Shown: piece by piece, positions 13,901 through 57,884 of the stretch
How positions within the stretch are numbered: the stretch's first letter is position 1
How the letters are laid out: each line of letters opens with the position of its first letter
Source: an uncultured Acidobacteriota bacterium
GTDB taxonomy: Bacteria; Acidobacteriota; Vicinamibacteria; Vicinamibacterales; Fen-181
Reading direction: 5' to 3'
Length of the DNA: 64,000 nt
Assembly (NCBI GenBank): GCA_963776495.1
Contig: CAVZMW010000006.1
Coordinates: 1,263,954-1,327,953 of the forward strand
Made by a program: the position numbers and the translations under genes
The notes under the pieces: model-generated
The model's database searches: none
What the model was told of the DNA's origin: nothing
Seen by the model: the letters and a program-made list of their open reading frames with translations, nothing else

Positions 13901-15547
13901 CTACCGCCGCAGGAGGCTCGCCGAGAACACCGACGGGTTCTGCAGCGCCTGTCGGAACGCCGCGTTGGTGAACGCCTTCGTGAGGTCCGGGTTGTCGAAC
14001 GCTTTGGAGATGGCCGGGTCGGCGAACGCCTTCGAGATGGCCGGGTCGGCGAACGCCTTCGAGATGGCCGGATCCGCGAACGCCTTCGAGATGGCCGGAT
14101 CCGCGAACGCCTTCGAGACGGCCGGGTCCGCGAACGCCTTCGAGACGGCCGGGTCCGCGAACGCCTTGGCGACGGCCGGGTCCGCGAACGCCTTCGAGAC
14201 GGCCGGATCCGCGAACGCCTTCGCGACGGCCGGATCCGTGAACGCTTTCGCGACGGCCGGATCCGCGAACGCCTTCGAGACGGCCGGATCCGCGAACGCT
14301 TTCGAGACGGCCGGGTCCGCGAACGCTTTCGAGACGGCCGGGTCCGCGAACGCCTTCGAGACGGCCGGATCCGCGAACGCCTTCGCGACCGCGGGGTCGG
14401 CGAACGCCTTGGCGACGGCCGGATCCGCAAACGCCTTCGCGATTGCGGGGTCGGCGAACGCTTTCGAGACTGCCGGTTTGTTGAGCGCCTTGGCGACGGC
14501 CGGATCCGCAAACGCCTTCGCGACAGCCGGATCCGCGAACGCCTTGGCGACGGCCGGGTCCGCGAACGCCTTGGCGACGGCCGGGTCCGCGAACGCCTTG
14601 GCGACAGCCGGATCCGCAAACGCCTTCGCGACAGCCGGATCCGCGAACGCCTTGGCGACAGCCGGATCCGCGAACGCCTTGGCGACGGCCGGGTCCGCAA
14701 ACGCCTTCGCGACGGCCGGGTCCGCAAACGCCTTCGCGACGGCCGGGTCCGCAAACGCCTTCGCGACGGCCGGGTCCGCAAACGCCTTCGCGACGGCCGG
14801 ATCTGCGAACGCCTTCGAGACAGCCGGGTCCGCAAACGCCTTCGCGATTGCGGGGTCGGCGAACGCCTTCGCGACGGCCGGGTCGGCGAGCGCCTTGCAA
14901 AGCGCCGCGTTGCCCAGCAGCGCACGCACGTTCTTGTCCTTGAGCAGCCGGTCGAAGGAGTCGCTCTGCAAGAACGCCTGCACTTCGGCGTTGTCGAGCA
15001 CGACGTCCTTCGAAGACGGTTGCGCTCCGCGGTAGCGATCGGCGGCCCCAATCGTGCCCTGGGCGCCCTGGTCGACCGACCGGGTGCCGTTGAAGTACAC
15101 GACCGCGAGAACGACGATGACCGCGAGTCCGGCGATCCCCCACAGCGCCTTCTTTGCCACGATCACACCTCCTCCGGCCATGCCGGCCTTGCGGTACGAC
15201 TCCACGTGAGCCTTGTCCTGCTCGGAATGATGCGGGAACCCGTCGAAAAGTTGGTGGCCCATGCCGCCTGCCAACGCGCCGACCCGTTCGCGCCACCCGC
15301 GGCGAGGGGGCGGGGACTCGGCCACCGCGGCCATCACCCGCTCGGCGAGCGCCGTCGGGGGAGACGGCCGTCCTGGCGCCCCGAGCAGCGCCGCCAGTTG
15401 TTCGAGGCTGTCCGCCCGTGCCCGGAGCGCCGGATCCTCGACCAGGCGGGCGCGCAGGACCGCAGCCTCCTCGTCCGAGAGCGTCCCGTCGAGCGCACGG
15501 TGCAGGAATTCCTCGTCGCGAGGCGCGATCATCTTGTCCTTTTCCAT
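13901..15547 (-). CDS. single-pass anti-sigma factor with a nonapeptide-repeat extracytoplasmic domain
   Basis: ATG 15547 lies inside the 3' end of the sigma gene. N-terminus MEKDKMIAPRDEEFLHRALDGTLSDEEAAVLRARL is anti-sigma-like. One TM segment (ALWGIAGLAVIVVLAVVYF). About 35 KAFADPAVA-type repeats follow. Confidence 0.7.
   Translation of the reverse strand: MEKDKMIAPRDEEFLHRALDGTLSDEEAAVLRARLVEDPALRARADSLEQLAALLGAPGRPSPPTALAERVMAAVAESPPPRRGWRERVGALAGGMGHQLFDGFPHHSEQDKAHVESYRKAGMAGGGVIVAKKALWGIAGLAVIVVLAVVYFNGTRSVDQGAQGTIGAADRYRGAQPSSKDVVLDNAEVQAFLQSDSFDRLLKDKNVRALLGNAALCKALADPAVAKAFADPAIAKAFADPAVSKAFADPAVAKAFADPAVAKAFADPAVAKAFADPAVAKAFADPAVAKAFADPAVAKAFADPAVAKAFADPAVAKAFADPAVAKAFADPAVAKAFADPAVAKAFADPAVAKALNKPAVSKAFADPAIAKAFADPAVAKAFADPAVAKAFADPAVSKAFADPAVSKAFADPAVSKAFADPAVSKAFADPAVAKAFTDPAVAKAFADPAVSKAFADPAVAKAFADPAVSKAFADPAVSKAFADPAISKAFADPAISKAFADPAISKAFADPAISKAFDNPDLTKAFTNAAFRQALQNPSVFSASLLRR
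13967..14905. repeat. tandem 27-bp repeat, about 35 units (939 nt / 27), coding
   Basis: The plus strand reads ...gccgggtccgcgaacgccttcgcgac... repeated head to tail. The minus-strand frame gives K-A-F-A-D-P-A-(V/I)-(A/S). The units at both ends and one internal unit (ALNKPAVS) are degenerate. Confidence 0.9.
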
Positions 15548-16080
15548 GACAGGAGATCCTCCCCAAGCCGCTGCCGCGCCGAGTAGAGCCGCGATTTCAC
15601 CTTCTTCTCGGGGACCCCGAGCACGCCGGCGATCTCGACGTACCGACAGGTTCGCATAGTGGCGCAACACGATGACCTCGCGCGAGATCGATGGCAGCCG
15701 CAGGAGGGCGGCCTGCACGTCGGCCCGCAACTCCGCTCGCTCGGCGTCCCGGTGGGGATCCTCCCGCGCCGCCAGCCTCGCGTCGAGCGGCTCCAGCGCC
15801 CGGCGCGACCGCCGGACGTTCAGGCACTCGTTCACGAGGATGCGGTAGACCCAGCTGAAGAACTTGTGCCTTCGGTCGAACGTCTGGAGTTTCCGGTAGG
15901 CGCGGACGAACGCGTCCTGGACGGCGTCGGCCGCCTGGTCGCCGTCGCCGAGCAGGCGGATGGCGACGCCGAACAGCACCCGCTGGTGGCGTTCCACGAG
16001 CGGCCGGTAGGCCGCCCGATCCCCCCGAGGACCCGTTCGACGAGGACGATGTCGTCGTCCTCACCTATAGGCAATGACAC
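15529..16080 (-). pseudogene. ECF (group 4) sigma-70 factor, frame interrupted twice as assembled
   Basis: Three frames must be joined. They read (GTG 16080) VSLPIGEDDDIVLVERVLGG, then DRAAYRPLVERHQRVLFGVAIRLLGDGDQAADAVQDAFVRAYRKL...VIVLRHYANLS, then YVEIAGVLGVPEKKVKSRLYSARQRLGEDLLSWKRTR*. One base is missing in the C6 run 16021-16026. One extra base lies at GTACC 15640-15644. Confidence 0.75.
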
Positions 16081-24688: not shown

Positions 24689-24704
24689 TCGGTAATCGCC
24701 TTGT

Positions 24705-24770
24705 GTCTTGAGTCCTGAGTCTTGCGCCTTGGGCCTCCGCGCATGAGCCCTGAGCCTCAGGCCCGGAGCC
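24705..24770. repeat. phased heptamer array (about ten GYCYYGA-like units) abutting the tsf stop codon
   Basis: gtcttga gtcctga gtcttgc gccttgg gcctccg cgcatga gccctga gcctcag gcccgga gcc, read in 7-nt register. Confidence 0.6.
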
Positions 24771-36537: not shown

Positions 36538-37554
36538 ATGATCAGCACAGGCGACGGCTTGCCCGGCGGCCGGCAACTCGAGCTGGCTGTTGCCGCGCTG
36601 GTCACCGTGGTCGCCGTCGGGACCCTCGGCTACGTGGTGATCGAGGGGTGGAGCGCGTGGGACGCGTTCTACATGACGATCATCAGCGTGACGACGGTCG
36701 GCTACCGCGAGGTGCACGACCTCTCGCGCGCCGGCCAGGCGTTCACCGTCGGCTTGCTCATCACCGGCGTCGGCGCGGTGTTCTACACCATCACGCTCCT
36801 CGCTGCCGGCATCATCGAATCGCGCGTGCATCCACGCGTCCAGGAGAGGCGGAGGGCGCGCATGATCGACCGACTCACCGACCACTTCATCCTGTGCGGC
36901 GCGGGCCGCATCGGGCTCATCATCGCCGACGAGTTCCGCCGCCAGCACGTCCCGTTCGTCGTCATCGACCGGGACCCCGACGCCGTGCACGCGGTGATCG
37001 AGCGCGGCGACCTCGCGGTCGAGGCCGACGCGAGCCGGGACGGGATCCTCGAGCGCCTGCGCGTCGACACGGCCCGCGGCCTGATCGCGGCGCTCGGCAG
37101 CGACGCCGAGAACGTCTACACGATCATGACGGCGCGGGGCCTCAAGCCGGACCTCTTCATCATCGCGCGCGCCGATTCCGACGACGGGAGGCGGAACATG
37201 ATGCGGGCCGGCGCCGACCGGGTCATTTCCCCCTACCTGATCGGCGCGGTCCAGATGGCGCAGACCGCGCTGCGCCCGGCCGTCGTGGACTTCGTGGAAC
37301 TGGCCACCAGCTCCGAGCACCTCGAGCTGGCGATGGAGCAGGTGGACATCGCGGAGGGGTCCGAACTCACCGCCCGCACGATCCTCGAGGCGAATGTGCG
37401 GCAGCGCTTCGGCGTCATCGTCATCGGCATTCGCCGGGGCAGCGGCCGGATGGAGTTCAATCCGCCGTCCGATGCCGTGATGCTGGCCGGCGACCAGCTC
37501 GTCGTGCTCGGCCGGCCCGAGCAGCTGAAGGGGCTCGAGGCCGCCGCCCGGTGA
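36538..37554 (+). CDS. two-TM potassium-channel-family protein with TrkA-N/TrkA-C (RCK) domains
   Basis: Pore helix plus filter AFYMTIISVTTVGYRE. Rossmann motif FILCGAGRIG. C-terminal TrkA-C. Confidence 0.8.
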   Translation: MISTGDGLPGGRQLELAVAALVTVVAVGTLGYVVIEGWSAWDAFYMTIISVTTVGYREVHDLSRAGQAFTVGLLITGVGAVFYTITLLAAGIIESRVHPRVQERRRARMIDRLTDHFILCGAGRIGLIIADEFRRQHVPFVVIDRDPDAVHAVIERGDLAVEADASRDGILERLRVDTARGLIAALGSDAENVYTIMTARGLKPDLFIIARADSDDGRRNMMRAGADRVISPYLIGAVQMAQTALRPAVVDFVELATSSEHLELAMEQVDIAEGSELTARTILEANVRQRFGVIVIGIRRGSGRMEFNPPSDAVMLAGDQLVVLGRPEQLKGLEAAAR

Positions 37555-37689
37555 GAAGTAAGAAGTAAGAAGTAGGAAGTGCGAAGTACGAGGTAGGAAG
37601 CAGGAAGTGTGAGTTGACGGCGATGGTGGCAAGGTGGCGACGGCGTCGGTACTTCATACGTCGAACCTCGAACTTCGCACGATCGCAGG
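37554..37689. repeat. heptamer array (AGAAGTA x3 then GGAAGTG, CGAAGTA, CGAGGTA, GGAAGCA, GGAAGTG) plus a complementary downstream arm
   Basis: The array starts at the last base of the TGA stop. gtgcgaagtacgaggt (37579-37594) pairs with acctcgaacttcgcac (37665-37680), 15 pairs and one A/A mismatch over 16 positions. The right arm is also 7-nt phased (cgaacct cgaactt cgcacga). Confidence 0.7.
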
Positions 37690-37746
37690 ATGGTCAGATT
37701 CTCCCCTCTGCCCCTCCAGGGCACTGGTGGGCCGGGAAGGCGCCGT

Positions 37747-41066: not shown

Positions 41067-41093
41067 GAAGAGAGAAGGCCGGCCCCCGGCCAT

Positions 41094-41156
41094 CGACTTG
41101 CGACTTGCGGCCAGGTCACGAACGACGCGTGATCCAGCCGCAGGTCGCGGGTCGCG
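41094..41156 (+). repeat. hairpin element with heptamer-phased arms and a TCACG..CGTGATC apex
   Basis: cgacttg cgacttg cggc (41094-41111) pairs with gccg caggtcg cgggtcg (41137-41154): 15 Watson-Crick pairs plus 3 T:G positions. The loop contains gtcacgaacgacgcgtgatcc. Confidence 0.7.
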
Positions 41157-41162
41157 AGCCTG

Positions 41163-43585: not shown

Positions 43586-45247
<1,662 letters not shown>

Positions 45248-46039: not shown

Positions 46040-46122
46040 GGCGAATCATAGCACACGTCGCGCGGGCGGCCGACCGAGGGGCGGCGCCCGACAACAGATC
46101 CGCCGCGCCCTGTGTACACGAC

Positions 46123-46199
46123 AGGGGTCGGAGCGGTTTTCTCGGGATCACGATTTCGAAATTCAAAATCGTCATCGGGAGAAAACCGCTCCGACCCCT
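46123..46199. repeat. 77-nt imperfect inverted repeat between sdhB and kdsB
   Basis: aggggtcggagcggttttctcgggatcacgatttcgaa is matched by ttcaaaatcgtcatcgggagaaaaccgctccgacccct. The outer 21 bp are perfect. The inner part has 4 mismatches and the centre is AT-rich. Confidence 0.75.
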
Positions 46200-46221
46200 G
46201 CAGAGGCGGAGCGCCTCGTCC

Positions 46222-50093: not shown

Positions 50094-51258
50094 GTGAAGA
50101 TTCACGAATACCAGGCGAAGGCCATTCTCGCGAGACACGGCGTCCCCGTGCCTCGCGGTGAAGTGGCGCACACGCCGTCGGACGCCGGTGACATCGCCCG
50201 GCGGCTGGGCGGCACCGTCGTCGTCAAGGCGCAGATCCATGCCGGCGGCCGCGGCAAGGGCGGCGGGGTGAAGCTGGCCACGTCGGCCGTCGAGGCCGAG
50301 GCGCTGGCCACGCAGATGATCGGCATGCGTCTCACGACGCACCAGACCGGTCCCGAAGGGCGCATCGTCAAGCGCCTGCTCGTCGAGGAAGGCCTGCAGA
50401 TCGCGCGCGAGCTGTACCTCGGCCTCGTGATCGACCGCGCGGCCGAGCGCCCGGTGCTGATGGTCAGCCCGGCGGGCGGCATGGAGATCGAGAAGGTGGC
50501 GGCCGAGACGCCGCACCTGATCTTCAAGGCGCACATCGACCCGGCCACCGGGTTGCTGCCGTTCCAGGCGCGCGGGCTCGCGTTCAGCCTCGGGCTCGAG
50601 GGGGCGGCCGTCGCGAAGGCGGCGAAGGTGATGGCGCAGGTCTTCGAGGCCTTCATGGCGACCGACGCGTCGCTCATCGAGATCAACCCGCTCATCGTCA
50701 CCGCGTCCGGCGACCTGCTGGCGCTCGACGCGAAGATGAACTTCGACGACAACGCGCTGTTCCGGCACCCGGACATCAAGGACCTCCGCGACTTCGACGA
50801 AGAGGACCCGCTCGAGATCGAGGCCTCGAAGTACCTCGCTCAACTACATCCGCCTCGACGGCAACATCGGCTGCATGGTCAACGGCGCGGGCCTGGCCAT
50901 GGCCACCATGGACGTCATCAAGCTGGCGGGCGGCGAGCCGGCCAACTTCCTCGACGTCGGCGGCGGGGCGACGGCCGAGCAGATCAGGAACGCGGTCCGG
51001 ATCCTGACCTCCGACCGCAACGTGCGGGCGGTGTTCGTCAACATCTTCGGCGGCATCCTGCGCTGCGACATCCTGGCCGAGGGGCTGGTGGCGGCGGTCA
51101 AGGAACTGCACGTTTCCCTCCCGATCGTCATCCGGATGGAGGGGACCAACGTCGACACGGGCAAACGGATGCTGCGCGACAGCGGGCTGAACTTCACCAC
51201 GGCCGACGCGGTGGACGAGGCGGCCGCGGCCGTCGTTGCGCTTGCGGGAGGTCGCTAA
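50094..51258 (+). pseudogene. sucC: succinyl-CoA synthetase beta subunit, one frame interruption as assembled
   Basis: GTG 50094 gives [20 protein letters not shown]...[11 protein letters not shown]. It continues in the +1 frame as (S)[43 protein letters not shown]...ALAGGR*. The junction is GTACC 50831-50835. The shifted frame runs on into sucD, which produces the 677-aa track ORF. Confidence 0.85.
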
Positions 51259-52127
51259 TGGCAGTGCTACTCGACAAGTCCACACGGCTGCTCGTCCAGG
51301 GGCTCACCGGCCGCGAGGGGACGTTCCACGCGAAGGCGGCGGCTTCCTACGGCACGACCATCGTCGGCGGCGTGACCCCGGGCAAGGGGGGGACGACCCA
51401 CGAGGGCTGGCCGATCTTCAACACCGTGCAGGACGCGAAGGCCGCGACCGGCGCCAACGCGTCGCTCATCTTCGTGCCGCCGGCCGCGGGGGCCGACACG
51501 ATCATGGAAGCGGTGGACGCGGGGCTGCCGCTCGTCGTGTGCATCACCGAGGGGATCCCCACGCTCGACATGATGCGCGTGGTCACCTTCATGCGCGGCC
51601 GGCAGGTCAGGCTCATCGGGCCGAACTGCCCGGGCCTCATCTCGCCCGGCAAGGCGAAGGCCGGCATCATCCCGGGCCACATCTGTCGCGAGGGCCGCGT
51701 CGGGATCGTGTCGCGCAGCGGGACGCTGACCTACGAGGCGATCCAGCAGACGACGCAGCTCGGCTACGGCCAGACGACGTGCATCGGGATCGGGGGCGAC
51801 CCGATCATCGGGACCACCTTCGTCGACGCGCTCGGGCTCTTCAACGCCGACCCGGAGACCGAGGCGGTCGTCATGATCGGCGAGATCGGCGGCACGGCCG
51901 AGGAGGAGGCCGCCGACTTCATCCGGCGCGAGTTCACCAAGCCGGTCGTCAGCTTCATCGCCGGGCAGACGGCTCCGCCGGGACGCCGGATGGGCCACGC
52001 GGGCGCGATCATCGCCGGCGGAAAGGGGACGGCCGCCGAGAAGATGGCGGCGCTGACCGCGGCGGGCGTGCATGTCGTGAAGAGCCCGGCCGAGATCGGC
52101 GCGGCGGTCAAGTTGGTGTTGAAGTAG
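51258..52127 (+). CDS. sucD: succinyl-CoA synthetase alpha subunit
   Basis: The ATG overlaps the sucC TAA (TAATG). [24 protein letters not shown]...GHAGAII. Confidence 0.9.
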
Positions 52128-52135
52128 TCCGGGTC

Positions 52136-52193
52136 GTGGCCAGTGGTCAGTGGCTAGTGCGTCACGCGTGATCGTCCAGCCACTAGCCACTAG
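52136..52193. repeat. heptamer-phased hairpin element after sucD, right arm interrupted by the IS
   Basis: gtggcca gtggtca gtggcta gtgcgtc acgcgtg atcgtcc agccact agccact ag|IS|ccact. The apex is gtcacgcgtgatcg (52161-52174). Confidence 0.7.
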
Positions 52194-54287
52194 CCTGGAT
52201 TTCCACGGACCACCATTTGCCTAATCGGGGCCCGACTGGTCGGGCCTGTATGCCTGCGTGAGCCGCTGATTCCGCCGCCGGAGCCGTCGCGGCGGTTCTC
52301 GGTGCCGCGTTGGTGCTTACCGTAATGGTCGTCTGATAGAAACAGTCTCACGGCAATACACAGCATACGGGTCCGCATGCTCCCGAGCCAGCGAGTGCGC
52401 AAGAGCCGCCTCTGGCAAGGGATCCGACGCCACACGCCGTGGTGTACGGAGGCCTGGCTTGACGCCAGAGGCGGTAGGTGATACCGTTGCATCGTGCAGA
52501 ACGGAGCACCTAAAGACATAAGCGCCGTTCGCCGGTTCTTCCTCGACCCGCAGTCGCCGAAGCAGCGCCAGTACGAGGCGCTGCGCGCCTACTTCGTGGA
52601 GGGGCGGGCCTCCCAGGAGGCCGCCCGCGCCTTCGGCTACTCGGTGTCCGCGTTCCACGTCTTGTGTCACCACTTCCGTCGCCAGGTGGACCCCGTCTTC
52701 TTTGTCACGCCACGACACGGCCCGCGATCGCAGCCGAAGAAGTCGGCCGCGCGGGATCTGATCGTCGATCTGCGCAAGCGGAATTACTCCGTCTACGAGA
52801 TCAGCGAGCACCTCAAGGCGCAGCAGCAGCCGCTGAGCCCGACGGCCGTCCGCGAGGTCCTGAAGGCCGAGGGGTTTGCCGCGCTGCCCCGGCGCTTGGA
52901 CGACGAGCGCCCGGCGCGGCCGCGGCCCACGGTGGAGCCGGTCGCCGATGTCCGGGGCTTCTCGCTCGCCCCGCGCCGGTTTACGACGGCCTGCGGGGGC
53001 CTCTTCCTCTTTGTGCCGGACTTGGTCCGGCTCAATCTCGACGGCGCCATCCAGGACGCCCGGCTGCCAGGCTCGAAGATGATCCCGGCCGGCCATGCCG
53101 CGCGAGCGTCGCTGGCCTTGAAGCTCTGGTCCATCGAACGCAAGAGCCACGTGATGGCCTTACTGGCCGACGACGGGTTTGGGCTGTTTGCCGGCCTCAA
53201 CGTCTTTCCGAAGAAGAGCTTTCTCTCCGAGTACTCGAGTCGCATCGATCACCTGAGGACCATGCGCCTGCTGGCCGCCTGGCATGCCCACGTCCGCGGC
53301 GAGTCGATCTTTCCCGGGCAGTCCTTCAATCTGGATTTTCATTCGGTGCCCTACTACGGAGAGCATCCGACCGTCCAGAAGCACTTCGTCTCCATGCGCA
53401 GCCGGCGCCAGCCGAGCGTGCTCGTCTTCCTCGCCCAGGATGCCGACACCCACGCGTTCTGCTATGCGAATGCCGATCTCCGGAAGGGCGACGAGCCCGA
53501 TGAGGTCTTCCGCTTCATCGACTTCTGGAAGCGCACGCACGGCACCTTGCCGCCGCACCTGGTCTTCGATTCGAAGCTCACGACCCATCGCGGGCTGGCG
53601 CGGATTGATGATCTGCAGATCGACTTCATCACGCTCCGACGCCGCTCGTCCACGCTCCTCAAGGAGATCGTGCTGCTGCCCCGGTCGGCCTGGCGCACGG
53701 TGGAATTGGACGTGCCGACCCGCAAGTACCGCACACCGCGGTACGTCGAGCAGGCCGTCACGCTGGCCGGGCGGCGCTTCCGCCAGCTCTATGTGCAGGA
53801 CCTCGGCCACGAGGACCCCACGATTCTGCTGACCAACGAATCCCGGACCTCGCCGAAGGCCCTCATCACGCGCTACGCGCAGCGCATGCTCATCGAGAAC
53901 GCGCTCTCCGATGCCGTCCGCTTCTTCCACATGGACGCCTTGTCCTCCGCGGTCGGCTTGAAGGTCGACTTCGACATGACGCTGCTCGTCGTCGCCAGCG
54001 GCCTCTACCGCCTGCTCGCGGGACGCATGCGCGGGTACCACGATGCCCAGGCCCGCCAGATCTTTCGCGACCTCGTCGCCATGCCGGCGACGGTCACAAT
54101 CACGAACGACGACGTGGAGGTCAGCTTCCACCGACGCTCACACCTGCCGATCGTCATGGCTTCGGGGCTCATGGACCACCCGGTCGCTGTCCCCTGGTGG
54201 GGTGGGCGCCGACTCCGGCTCACGACGTACAATGGCCCGACCGAGACGGCGTCGTCTTAGGCAAATTCTCGTCCGTGGAAATCCAGG
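52194..54287 (+). mobile_element. insertion sequence, 2094 bp, 31-bp imperfect terminal inverted repeats, CTAG target-site duplication
   Basis: The left end is cctggatttccacggacCACCatttgcctaa. The reverse complement of the right end is cctggatttccacggacGAGAatttgcctaa (27/31 identical). It is flanked by ctag at 52190-52193 and 54288-54291. It contains a single transposase ORF. Confidence 0.85.
52494..54260 (+). CDS. DDE-type transposase (588 aa), family not assigned
   Basis: It fills the element. N-terminal HTH-like region (QRQYEALRAYFVEGRASQEAARAFGYSVSAFH). A YAQRMLIENALSD segment resembles the IS4-type Y-x2-R-x3-E signature. The TAG stop lies inside the right inverted repeat. Confidence 0.7.
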   Translation: MQNGAPKDISAVRRFFLDPQSPKQRQYEALRAYFVEGRASQEAARAFGYSVSAFHVLCHHFRRQVDPVFFVTPRHGPRSQPKKSAARDLIVDLRKRNYSVYEISEHLKAQQQPLSPTAVREVLKAEGFAALPRRLDDERPARPRPTVEPVADVRGFSLAPRRFTTACGGLFLFVPDLVRLNLDGAIQDARLPGSKMIPAGHAARASLALKLWSIERKSHVMALLADDGFGLFAGLNVFPKKSFLSEYSSRIDHLRTMRLLAAWHAHVRGESIFPGQSFNLDFHSVPYYGEHPTVQKHFVSMRSRRQPSVLVFLAQDADTHAFCYANADLRKGDEPDEVFRFIDFWKRTHGTLPPHLVFDSKLTTHRGLARIDDLQIDFITLRRRSSTLLKEIVLLPRSAWRTVELDVPTRKYRTPRYVEQAVTLAGRRFRQLYVQDLGHEDPTILLTNESRTSPKALITRYAQRMLIENALSDAVRFFHMDALSSAVGLKVDFDMTLLVVASGLYRLLAGRMRGYHDAQARQIFRDLVAMPATVTITNDDVEVSFHRRSHLPIVMASGLMDHPVAVPWWGGRRLRLTTYNGPTETASS

Positions 54288-56287: not shown

Positions 56288-57336
56288 CCGCGACGGCAGG
56301 TCCCGCCCCGGCCGCCGGCCGGAAGGTGAACCGGATCGGTCTCGAGATGGCCGCCTACCGCGGCGGCAAGAGCACGCTGTGCGCCGGCTGCGGGCACAAC
56401 GCCATCTCGGAGCGCATCATCGAGGCCTTCTACGAGATGGGCGTCGAGAGCGGCCGGGTGATCAAGCTGTCGGGGATCGGCTGCTCGAGCAAGAGCCCGG
56501 CGTACTTCCTCGGCCAGGCGCACGGGATCAACTCCGTCCACGGGCGGATGCCGTCGGTGGCGACCGGGGCGATGCTGGCCAACCGGACCATGCGGGCCAT
56601 CGGCGTCAGCGGCGACGGCGACACCGGGGCGATCGGCATCGGCCAGTTCGTCCACCTGATGCGCCGCAACGTGCCGATGATCTACATCGTCGAGAACAAC
56701 GGCTGCTACGGGCTCACCAAGGGGCAGCTGTCGCCGACGGCCGACGTCGGCTCCACGCTCAAGAACGGGGTGGTGAACGACCTGCCGCCCATCGACCTGT
56801 GCGGGCTGGCGTTGGACCTCGGCGCCAGCTTCGTCGCCCGGTCGTTCTCGGGCGACAAGAAGCAGATGCTGTCGCTGCTCAAGGCCGCGATCTCGCACCA
56901 GGGCACGGCTATGCTCGACGTCATCTCGCCGTGCGTGACCTTCAACGACCACGAGGGCTCGACCAAGAGCTACTCGTATGTGAAGGACCACGACGAGCCG
57001 CTCGAGGAGATCAGCTTCGTCCCCTTCTTCGAGGACATCTCGGTCGACTACGAGCCGGGGACCGTGCAGGAGGTCGCCCTTCACGACGGGTCGAAGGTGC
57101 TGCTCAAGAAGCTCGCCGGCGACTACGACCCGACCAACAAGGCGATGGCGCGGCGGGTGATCGCCGAGTCGGCCGCGCGAGGCGAGTTCGCGACCGGCCT
57201 CATCTACGTCGAGCCGAACCGGCCGGACTTCCTCATACTGCTCAACCTCGTGGACCAGCCGCTGGCGGAGCTGCCATCCGACCGGGTGCGCCCGTCGCGC
57301 GAGGCGCTCGACGCCATCAACCGGGCGTTAGCGTAA
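56284..57336 (+). CDS. korB: 2-oxoglutarate/2-oxoacid:ferredoxin oxidoreductase beta subunit (TPP-binding)
   Basis: The ATG overlaps the korA TGA. CAGCGHNAI and GVSGDGDTGAIGIGQFVHLMRRNVPMIYIVENNGCYGLTKGQ (TPP motif). Confidence 0.8.
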   Translation: MTATAGPAPAAGRKVNRIGLEMAAYRGGKSTLCAGCGHNAISERIIEAFYEMGVESGRVIKLSGIGCSSKSPAYFLGQAHGINSVHGRMPSVATGAMLANRTMRAIGVSGDGDTGAIGIGQFVHLMRRNVPMIYIVENNGCYGLTKGQLSPTADVGSTLKNGVVNDLPPIDLCGLALDLGASFVARSFSGDKKQMLSLLKAAISHQGTAMLDVISPCVTFNDHEGSTKSYSYVKDHDEPLEEISFVPFFEDISVDYEPGTVQEVALHDGSKVLLKKLAGDYDPTNKAMARRVIAESAARGEFATGLIYVEPNRPDFLILLNLVDQPLAELPSDRVRPSREALDAINRALA

Positions 57337-57340
57337 TCCG

Positions 57341-57418
57341 TGGTGGCCGGTTGCCAGTGGCCAGTGGGCAGTCTGTCACGTGTGATCGACTGGCAACTGA
57401 CAACTGGCTATTGCCGGG
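57341..57418. repeat. heptamer-phased hairpin element after korB
   Basis: ccagtgg ccagtgg gcagtct gtcacgt gtgatcg actggca actgaca actggct attgccg. The arms pair at 16 of 20 positions. The apex is gtcacgtgtgatcg (57375-57388). Confidence 0.7.
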
Positions 57419-57470: not shown

Positions 57471-57884
57471 ATGGAACGCACATTGGCCATCATCAAGCCC
57501 GACGCCGTCGGCCGGCAGCTGGTCGGACCGATCGTCGGACGTATCGAACAGGCGGGCTTCCGGATCCGGGCGATGCGCCTGGCCCACCTCACCAGGCGCG
57601 AGGCCGAGGGGTTCTATGCCGTCCACCGCGAGAAGCCGTTCTTCGGCGGCCTGACCGAGTTCATGTCCTCCGGGCCGGCGGTGCTCATGGTGCTCGAGGC
57701 CGACGGGGCGATCTCGAAGTGGCGCGACCTGATGGGCGCGACCGACCCTGCGAAGGCCGCCCCGGGAACGCTTCGCCGGGAGTTCGGGACGTCGATCGGG
57801 TCCAACGCCACACACGGATCCGACGCGCCGGACACGGCCGCCTACGAGATCGGCTACTTCTTCCGGGGCATGGAACTGATCTGA
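57471..57884 (+). CDS. ndk: nucleoside diphosphate kinase
   Basis: MERTLAIIKPDAV...NATHGSDAPDTAAYEIGYFF. Confidence 0.95.
   Translation: MERTLAIIKPDAVGRQLVGPIVGRIEQAGFRIRAMRLAHLTRREAEGFYAVHREKPFFGGLTEFMSSGPAVLMVLEADGAISKWRDLMGATDPAKAAPGTLRREFGTSIGSNATHGSDAPDTAAYEIGYFFRGMELI

Follow-up and report, generated by a model that had tools for sequence, protein, structure and literature searches.

We analysed a 64,000-nucleotide (nt) stretch of DNA from an uncultured Acidobacteriota bacterium (the window, with a GC content of about 70%; coordinates are window positions unless a retrieved locus, designated by an L number, is named). It carries three long hairpins, called A, B and C, which lie shortly after stop codons, have arms made of tandem heptamers and share an apex in which GTCACG is followed by GTGATC. 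Element A separates korB from ndk (ATG at 57471), and a Pfam match identifies KorA upstream. Element B follows SucC and SucD, also assigned by Pfam, and element C lies where an amino acid permease gene (+) and a gene for a protein with SIS and HAD domains (-) converge, both again from Pfam matches. The closest homologues of KorB (85-91% identity), which carry the name 2-oxoglutarate ferredoxin oxidoreductase beta subunit, come from metagenome-assembled genomes (MAGs), and where a source is named it is Vicinamibacterales, Acidobacteriota. Nearly all the sequences compared below are likewise MAGs, and genes in the retrieved loci were called crudely, as stop-to-stop open reading frames (ORFs) filtered by the GC content of codon positions.

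A sequence-only reading of the window had proposed that these hairpins share a 7-nt phasing of the arms, a common apex and a position just after stop codons, and all three features were recovered. The pattern GTCACG-N{0,12}-GTGATC has exactly three matches in the window, all on the plus strand (41115-41134, 52161-52173 and 57375-57387), against a mean of 0.40 in dinucleotide shuffles, none of which reached three matches in 100 trials. Tandem Repeats Finder reported period-7 arrays at the three places (41094-41109, 52132-52195 and 57343-57372), and each element folds into a long hairpin, with free energies (dG) of -42.9 for A (z -3.5), -34.8 for B (z -3.2) and -57.2 for C (z -5.4). Elements A, B and C begin 4, 10 and 28 nt after a stop codon, respectively, the distance of B being counted to its first clean unit. 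A covariance model of the family, built from 50 distinct copies, scored the three elements as given in Table 1 and found nothing else significant in the window.

Table 1. Hairpin elements of the window, with the insertion sequence that interrupts element B
Feature	Start	End	Strand	Remarks
Element A	57340	57414	+	canonical member; covariance model 71.9 bits
Element B, proximal part	52137	52193	+	covariance model 59.1 bits
Insertion sequence interrupting B	52194	54287	+	2,094 bp; not part of the hairpin family
Element B, distal rest of right arm	54288	54296	+	CTAGCCACT, that is CTAG CCACT
Element C	41094	41154	+	divergent member; covariance model 22.4 bits (E 0.0025)
Collapsed remnant or minimal copy	43569	43595	+	CGGGCAG TTGTCAG TGGCTAG, that is GTCAGTGGCTAG, then ACTAC

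Element A opens with GTGG, a degenerate form of GTAG, and continues with four left-arm units (57344-57371), the apex TCTGTCACGTGTGATCGA (57372-57389), three right-arm units (57390-57410) and TTGC, a degenerate CTAC. The preceding korB stop is TAA (57334-57336), and the end of A lies 57 nt before the ndk start. In element B, downstream of the sucD TAG (52125-52127), the left arm TGGCCAG TGGTCAG TGGCTAG (52137-52157) leads to the apex TGCGTCACGCGTGATCGT (52158-52175) and to the proximal right arm CCAGCCA CTAGCCA CTAG (52176-52193). A and B are homologous in register over their full length, with the same arms.

The right arm of B is interrupted by an insertion sequence (IS) with 17-nt perfect inverted ends (CCTGGATTTCCACGGAC) and a flanking CTAG duplication. 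Its ORF (52494-54260) encodes a 588-amino-acid DDE-type transposase that has no Pfam match and gives weak NCBIfam matches, to IS1380 (E 7.5e-8, under the curated cut-off) and to IS4/IS1634-like families; this IS possibly belongs to a poorly described group. The short piece beyond it, which the sequence-only reading had simply added to B, turns out to be the distal part of B's right arm split off by the IS, and its CTAG is the second copy of the target duplication. At the position of B the related locus L140 has no IS and a continuous element, and the IS is likewise not present in L001, L002 or any other retrieved locus. Upstream of B, sucC and sucD (50094-52127) appear as a single 677-amino-acid ORF from whose middle the SucC CoA-ligase domain is absent, and a separate coding-like frame (50740-51258) lies within this region; relatives carry two genes. 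This suggests either a real disruption or frameshifts of the kind common in assemblies of long reads.

Element C has the arms CGACTTG CGACTTG CGGCC and GGCCGC AGGTCGC GGGTCG, then a 2x2 internal loop and an apical 7-bp stem, GGTCACG/CGTGATC, with the 7-nt loop aacgacg (41114-41134), and it ends in GCTAC (41157-41161). Eight additional apex bases had been counted in C at first; they are better described as this 7-nt loop closed by the 7-bp stem. The same stem sequence with a loop of 6-7 nt occurs in L129. In L184, where the permease is 94% identical, the ortholog of C has retained both the terminal GCTAC and the stem (GGATCACG/CGTGATCC), has the loop cttcatc instead of aacgacg, and differs in its arm units. 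A small GC hairpin lies between the permease TAG and C; on the minus strand (41077-41091) this hairpin, followed by TTCTCTCTTC, was called terminator-like, and it could be a terminator for the convergent kdsC/kdsD-like genes.

The last entry of Table 1 provides, with its CTAG, the stop codon of a minus-strand gene (43586-45241). At the same junction, L158 carries a complete element, with the canonical apex and more than 25 heptamers, and the window copy looks like a collapsed hairpin.

Anatomy and distribution of the family

The family was traced with the pattern GGNNAGTNNGTCACGNGTGATCGNC, which has 19 specified bases, in one genome per species (185,579 species, 596 Gb). A 14-base apex pattern would give at least 120 matches by chance, so only patterns with at least 19 specified bases were used. 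Among the 41 stretches that matched, 32 have heptamer arms and come without exception from seven Acidobacteriota MAGs; 17 of these armed copies lie in a single one, MFD05942.bin.1.436, a relative of the window genome at about 89-91% nucleotide identity. Queries for proteins identical to the Ndk and SdhB of the window returned no record, so that the source genome is absent from the collection queried and this MAG is not the source. The nine remaining stretches are armless and belong to other phyla, five of them being the same Kitasatospora coding region. In metagenome contigs, a second pattern matched 18 further stretches; they hold 19 copies of the apex, one of which is armless. No match was found in the viral contigs scanned, on which ground a phage origin was set aside. 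The sequence-only reading had looked to copies outside the window, and they exist: the family is real, dispersed and confined to a clade of Vicinamibacterales-like Acidobacteriota, which its 18-nt centre marks with high specificity.

In its canonical form the element is GTAG-(TGGYYAG)n-TNTGTCACGCGTGATCGA-(CTRRCCA)n-CTAC and measures about 75-82 nt, elements overall ranging from 61 to 124 nt. Arm units follow the scheme T-NNNN-AG on one side and CT-NNNN-A on the other; their number per arm is most often 4-5 and ranges from 1 to about 25. Between the arms lies the conserved, slightly asymmetric centre TNT-GTCACG-C-GTGATC-GA (core TNT GTCACGCGTGATC GA). In most copies it contains a 10-bp perfect palindrome, and it is the most conserved part of the element; its flanks, GTG and CGA, are asymmetric, fixed and conserved. 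Positions left free by the search pattern are conserved too: among 34 copies, 31 have C as the central base and 33 have kept the A of GATCGAC. Tips are found at both ends and are paired: among the 25 best-delimited copies, 16 start with GTAG and 22 end with CTAC. Arm lengths can become very unequal, as seen in L135 (257-660, 5509-5680), where a canonical element has about 17 left units and 4 right units.

The canonical arms draw on the units TGGCCAG, TGGTCAG, TGGCTAG, TGATCAG and TTGYCAG and their complements. Other unit pairs are mounted on the same centre, namely TAGGCAG/CTGCCTA (L168, L177), TCTTGAG or TTATGAG facing CTCATAA (L169, L181), TTCTCAG/CTGAGAA (L183) and GGCTGAG/TCAGCC (L187). 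Whole heptamer types have thus been replaced across copies while the arms stayed complementary. The contrast drawn in the sequence-only reading, between a fixed apex and free-running but self-complementary arms, holds across the family and does not hold for A relative to B, which have the same arms in register.

Covariation between the arms was measured with partners shuffled as a control; the alignment was free of gaps and comprised the centre and three units from each arm. Paired cells amounted to 84.3%, versus 81.7 +/- 0.5% in the shuffles, and the covariation score was 0.167 versus 0.126, a value reached by none of 500 shuffles. Sliding the partner columns by 1-3 positions lowered pairing to 13-46%. 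The excess of covariation is real but modest, and related sequences can inflate it. Copies with other unit types contribute most of it; in the canonical subfamily, the two variable positions (YY/RR) of opposed units mostly do not match.

The centre, with its palindrome TCACGCGTGA including GATC, could be a duplex-DNA site for a dimeric regulator, for a nucleoid or segregation protein, or for a methylation-linked factor, the arms being incidental. Such a site would be in keeping with the perfect symmetry of the palindrome, its conservation above that of the rest of the element and its fixed asymmetric flanks. However, the half-sites are kept with either 0-1 or 6-7 nt between them, which a dimer binding duplex DNA would not tolerate. 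Moreover, the elements lie downstream of genes and not in promoters, the neighbouring genes share no function, and a resemblance to parS or CRP/FNR sites was rejected by eye, against their consensus sequences. We therefore consider a duplex-binding site very unlikely. A stem that is kept with a loop of 0-1 nt or of 6-7 nt argues for recognition of a folded strand rather than of a duplex with fixed spacing, and the recognised form would most likely be a folded single strand, either DNA during mobilisation or RNA.

Gain, loss and dispersal of the elements

With a conserved centre and fixed tips, single copies can be recognised and traced between genomes, and the traced copies reveal several kinds of change. 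Element A is found in the window and in L140, whose flanking genes are about 89-91% identical, and not in L001, which is as close as L140, nor in L002, L003 and L004. The korB-ndk spacer measures 49 nt in L001-L003, 117 nt in L004 and 134 nt in the window. Over 123 aligned positions the two orthologous copies of A differ by one 7-nt unit and five substitutions, the L140 copy having a GTAG tip and one more right-arm unit than the window copy. This difference of exactly one heptamer bears out the slippage-driven change that had been suggested from the sequence alone: the number of units rises and falls by steps of 7 nt, which fits replication slippage.

At site B, the centre of the L140 copy (AGTGAATCACGCG-GACACACT) matches the canonical apex (AGTCGATCACGCGTGACACACT) in reverse complement. 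The covariance model gives the L140 copy 53.8 bits on the minus strand versus 50.8 on the plus strand, and the window copy 59.1 (+) versus 38.2 (-). The centre can thus be inverted between near-identical arms at an ortholog pair; either an inversion of the centre itself or a second insertion at the same spot would produce this arrangement. Four states of the purD-purE junction occur among close relatives: L149 holds a canonical element and L187 an element with the apex core and GGCTGAG arms, while the two genes are separated in L188 by a spacer of 70 nt that includes a mini-palindrome and meet in L189 in an ATGA stop/start overlap. Lastly, hairpins can collapse to short remnants, of the kind listed in Table 1.

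On balance, we lean towards the view that the element is a non-autonomous mobile foldback hairpin, whose arms change by 7-nt slippage while staying paired, and which is tolerated only just after stop codons. The whole unit would have been copied to some 20 or more unrelated sites per genome, in the manner of repetitive extragenic palindromic (REP) sequences and REPINs, or of MITEs (miniature inverted-repeat transposable elements). Copies would persist almost only between a stop codon and the start signals of the next gene. The arms evolve much faster than the centre; their complementarity would be maintained through pairing-dependent selection or through arm-to-arm templating in the folded state, and the element would probably be co-transcribed as an intercistronic or 3' hairpin.

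Several observations weigh against this view. The sequence-only reading had suggested that a REP-associated tyrosine transposase (RAYT) or IS200-like gene might accompany the elements, and none turned up: with E. coli TnpA-REP (identical to PDB 4ER8) as query, tblastn gave a best E value of 0.76. The search took in the window itself, 32 loci from MAGs, 18 from metagenomes and 4 relatives, together about 0.5 Mb with 52 armed copies, which covers a few percent (about 5%) of any one genome. Neither a target-site duplication nor a conserved flank was seen within 14 nt on either side of 25 copies. No filled and empty sites could be aligned at single-nucleotide resolution, so that transposition itself is inferred. 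About 20 copies per genome, as counted with the exact pattern, is low for REPs. Retrieval demanded an exact apex and was biased toward well-conserved apices, which makes the conservation of the apex partly an ascertainment effect, and the gene calls are crude and the sequences mostly from MAGs. Finally, heptamer hairpins without the apex exist (L186 4684-4772, z -6.6; window 37552-37690, z -5.3), and other period-7 arrays are abundant, so that the arms could arise in place, with the apex spread by recombination.

Candidate movers and related identities were tried and rejected. The IS inside B is not the parent, as its ends are unrelated and it is absent from the other loci; its insertion into a CTAG of the arm has no link to the family. 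No autonomous IS with the element's own ends was found in the retrieved loci, which represent a few percent of each genome. Duplication of TA in a G-TA-C target, or duplication of the palindromic CTAG, does not fit the GTAG...CTAC tips unless a fixed 4-bp target is assumed. The attC sites of integrons are imperfect palindromes just after the stop codons of cassettes, with cores RYYYAAC ... GTTRRRY. The tips GTAGTGG/CCACTAC do not fit GTTRRRY, and the neighbours of the elements are syntenic housekeeping genes.

Heptamer arrays and hairpins at gene ends

The apex-bearing family sits within a lineage-wide habit of heptamer arrays at gene ends. Period-7 runs numbered 83, against 3 of period 5 and 6 of period 8, in Acidobacteriota loci whose choice for their elements biases the count. 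Other intergenic period-7 units are TGAGCCT, CAGGCTT, CGTGAGG/CGTAAGG, CTGACTC/CTGACTG, TCAGAAC, CCCTGAG, TAGCTGG and GAAGTAA (window 24690-24770; L126, L127, L145, L153, L165, L172 and others), most of which hold a stop triplet or its C-for-T variant. Several arrays begin at the stop codon of a gene, with a unit made of the stop triplet plus 4 nt: examples are window 37552 (TGA-GAAGTAA...), L186 4684 (TAG-CTGG...) and L187 (GGC-TGA-GGGCTGA...). The window hairpin at 37552-37690 consists of a left arm of eight units (GAAGTAA/GAAGTAG/GAAGTGC...), a centre of about 38 nt and a right arm GTACTTC...GAACTTC, with no GTCACG. A GAAGTAA run also follows the sucD stop in L001 (7853-7888; 89% over 36 nt), and the junction of L186 that is orthologous to 37552-37690 has no array. 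L135 carries a solo direct array, (CTAGTGG)x9, at 257-319, and separately a large hairpin with arms (NAGTCNA)n/(TTGACTG)n.

The abundance of these arrays brings up a different origin, entirely in place: 7-nt slippage would build arrays at gene ends, template switching at quasi-palindromes would invert them, and gene conversion, for which the near-identical arms would serve as homology, would spread the short apex. The excess of period 7 with many different units, the arrays that start at a gene's own stop, the forms without apex (the L186 hairpin, the L135 array) and the lack of target duplication and of transposase at the retrieved loci all agree with it, and both apex orientations and variable unit numbers would be expected. 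On the other hand, more than 30 unrelated loci share the arm vocabulary and the sharp tips while their flanks are unrelated, which fits better with copying of the whole unit. There is no array at the korB-ndk junctions of L001 and L002 nor at the purD-purE junction of L189, hence no hairpin to convert, and with arms of only 28 nt there is little homology for conversion. We regard an origin in place as a live alternative, though an improbable one, and retain the mobile hairpin as our preferred reading.

Two other repeats of the window stand apart from these arrays. Between kdsB and sdhB lies a 79-nt near-perfect palindrome (46122-46200; 39-nt arms, 90% complementary, dG -57, z -11.5), which is an insertion relative to L001 and L002 (alignments skip 46106-46221 and 46090-46221). 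It has GATCACGAT near its centre, scores 13 bits with the family model (E 0.6), and has no second copy in the retrieved loci. The other, at 13970-14896, is a tandem repeat of 34.3 copies of a 27-nt unit (88% matches; score 1189); the minus-strand ORF that contains it (13901-16060) is coding-like, and the repeat probably encodes a 9-residue protein repeat.

The position of the apex-bearing elements relative to genes is narrow. For at least 24 of 34 copies, a coding-like ORF (GC3 >0.8) stops at the tip or not more than 24 nt from it; in about 11 cases the TAG of the terminal GTAG is the stop codon itself (the boundaries of three copies being corrected), and only two ORFs stop inside an element. 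TAG makes up 15 of 22 adjacent stops versus 60 of 178 elsewhere (p = 0.002), and use of the element's own TAG as stop can account for most of this excess. In L149, purD appears to have lost its ancestral TGA, which is replaced by TCG, and the stop is now the TAG of the element, 12 nt further on. Neighbours include prfA, prmC, a HIT protein gene, purD, dnaK, nuoL, leuS, sufB/D, korB, sucD, a peptidase M3 gene and mazG, and no transposase gene was found among the genes adjoining copies. In L153 (1133-2219), prmC lies between two canonical elements that face the same way, the order being prfA, element, prmC, element, HIT; the release factor 1 gene and the gene of its methyltransferase are thus each followed by a TAG-rich element. 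The family therefore sits in essential operons (prfA-prmC, sucCD-korAB-ndk, purD-purE), sometimes supplying the stop codon. In this soil lineage, which is abundant and mostly uncultured, it can thus influence how gene ends are annotated and possibly how operons are expressed.

Stop triplets are frequent in the elements (5.7 per strand versus 2.7 in shuffles), and on 35 of 42 strand-directions none of the three frames stays open, versus 20% of shuffles; with stop triplets in all frames, translation would not be able to run through an element. Relative to the abutting gene, the apex faces the same way in about 14 copies and the opposite way in about 9, as far as the crude gene calls allow. Sense and antisense strands fold equally well (mean dG -42.2 versus -40.5, p = 0.34); the strand with the forward apex is slightly more stable (p = 0.03), largely through a conserved G-T pair in the apex. 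A scan for intrinsic terminators did not call A, B or C, which have no T tract and whose flanks are not T-rich, and Rfam gave no match in the whole window at gathering thresholds. The sequence-only reading was right to separate the hairpins from ordinary terminators and, given that they are not 20-40 nt long, from simple REPs. It had also considered mRNA 3'-end structures; given the two orientations and the equal folding, a strand-specific role of the apex in mRNA is not supported, and selection on the sense-strand RNA was rejected on the same energies.

These features are also those of an RNA element selected by the host, be it a hairpin that stabilises transcripts against 3' exonucleases, an RNase III site, a terminator independent of a T tract or a three-frame stop pad, dispersal being secondary. 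Selection of this kind would account for the tight position 0-24 nt after stops, often in housekeeping operons such as the prfA-prmC-HIT arrangement of L153, for strong hairpins of about -40 kcal/mol, for arms that co-vary above shuffles and for the closed frames, and REPs in similar positions are reported to act as RNA elements (PMC3733652). Against it, an apex that faces either way and strands that fold equally leave no strand-specific signal that would track transcription, neither a T tract nor an Rfam match was found, and the corresponding junctions of close relatives lack the element. We hold it to be a serious alternative, though an unlikely one.

Comparison with known repeat systems

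Full-text literature searches gave no description of such elements in Acidobacteria. The foldback repeat family is apparently undescribed; inverted heptamer arrays at gene ends and REP- or MITE-like palindromes are already known. Heptamer arrays have been found in cyanobacteria, Xanthomonas, Beggiatoaceae and Bacteroidetes, and the literature cited here leaves their origin and function open. In PMC4679880, heptanucleotide arrays are described as the commonest long simple sequence repeats (LSSRs) in many prokaryotes, polymerase slippage is proposed for them, and Mrazek et al. 2007 is cited as first noting heptanucleotide LSSRs.

The closest published analogue is the set of inverted GGGAATC heptamer arrays of Xanthomonas (Rehm et al. 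2015, PMC4692102), and in view of it the novelty outside cyanobacteria that the sequence-only reading had claimed was overstated. Both systems occur in GC-rich non-cyanobacterial genomes and consist of tandem heptamers, with a mode of 4 units in Xanthomonas and of 4-5 per arm here; in Xanthomonas 70-75 array pairs per genome are inverted, lie 21-67 nt apart and could form stem-loops (PMC4692102). Both are about 90% intergenic and close to the upstream stop codon, at a mean of 28 nt in Xanthomonas (3-30 nt in the table), where arrays sometimes overlap the end of the ORF (PMC4692102). Co-oriented housekeeping genes flank both, in Xanthomonas for example groES/groEL, atpA/atpG and gltB/gltD, and the unit number varies between related Xanthomonas species (PMC4692102) as it does, by a 7-nt indel, between orthologs here. 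The Xanthomonas units, however, are G-rich and were studied as G-quadruplex formers, whereas TGGYYAG/CTRRCCA have no G3 tracts; the spacer between the arms is not reported as conserved, whereas an 18-nt centre and GTAG/CTAC tips are conserved here; and the copy number is about 185 per genome, versus about 20 in our family (PMC4692102). Several heptamer vocabularies on one centre are likewise a feature of our family and not of the Xanthomonas arrays.

The second comparison is with REPs and REPINs (Di Nocera et al. 2013, PMC3733652; Bertels and Rainey 2011, PMC3116915). As described in PMC3733652, REPs resemble our elements in being non-autonomous extragenic palindromes with a terminal GTAG (GT[A/G]G), most of which lie downstream of a coding region, between genes that run in one direction or converge. 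In a REPIN, two inverted halves and a spacer form a larger hairpin (PMC3116915). The differences are in size and number, REPs having 20-40 nt and usually more than 100 copies, in the hundreds, as against 61-124 nt and 17 exact-pattern copies in the best-sampled MAG, and in architecture. The REP GTAG is an unpaired tag at one end, whereas here both ends carry it and are paired; the arms are heptamer arrays and not REP palindromes; and REPINs have conserved ends and a variable spacer, whereas in our family the centre is most conserved. REP systems also have a cognate RAYT, a Y1 HUH transposase whose gene the repeats typically flank, and none was found near any copy in the sequence searched. RAYT-like genes with long inverted repeats (TIRYTs) are documented in other Acidobacteria (PMC3733652).

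The short tandemly repeated repetitive (STRR) sequences and the TAACTGA repeats of Beggiatoaceae, Cyanobacteria and Bacteroidetes (MacGregor 2015, PMC4679880) are, like our family, intergenic tandem heptamers with variable unit number, patchy phylogeny and units that hold stop triplets. Unlike it, they are almost all direct, one inverted set being reported in a Beggiatoa genome, lie mostly just upstream of start codons and have no shared centre (PMC4679880). The CAACTGA of the right arm of A is one base away from TAACTGA. A CAGT/ACTG core is also common to the unit of A and to the STRR units CCCCAGT, TTGGTCA and CAACAGT.

MITEs resemble our elements in being short and non-coding, made up wholly of inverted repeats and polymorphic for presence or absence, and differ by the target duplication that belongs to their definition, which was absent at 25 copies. 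Foldback transposons, a structural analogy, have terminal inverted repeats made of tandem subrepeats whose number varies between copies; they are eukaryotic and far larger than the elements described here. A speculative and rather improbable extension of the mobile hairpin is that it represents a new bacterial foldback element, whose identity would lie in the apex hairpin and the GTAG tips, whose enzyme would read the folded strand, whose arms would be rebuilt continually by both 7-nt slippage and templating from arm to arm, and which would double as a three-frame stop-and-hairpin pad at gene ends. Recognition of the folded strand would explain why the loop size is free. If true, such an element would offer a mechanistic handle on the origin of the STRR, TAACTGA and GGGAATC arrays.

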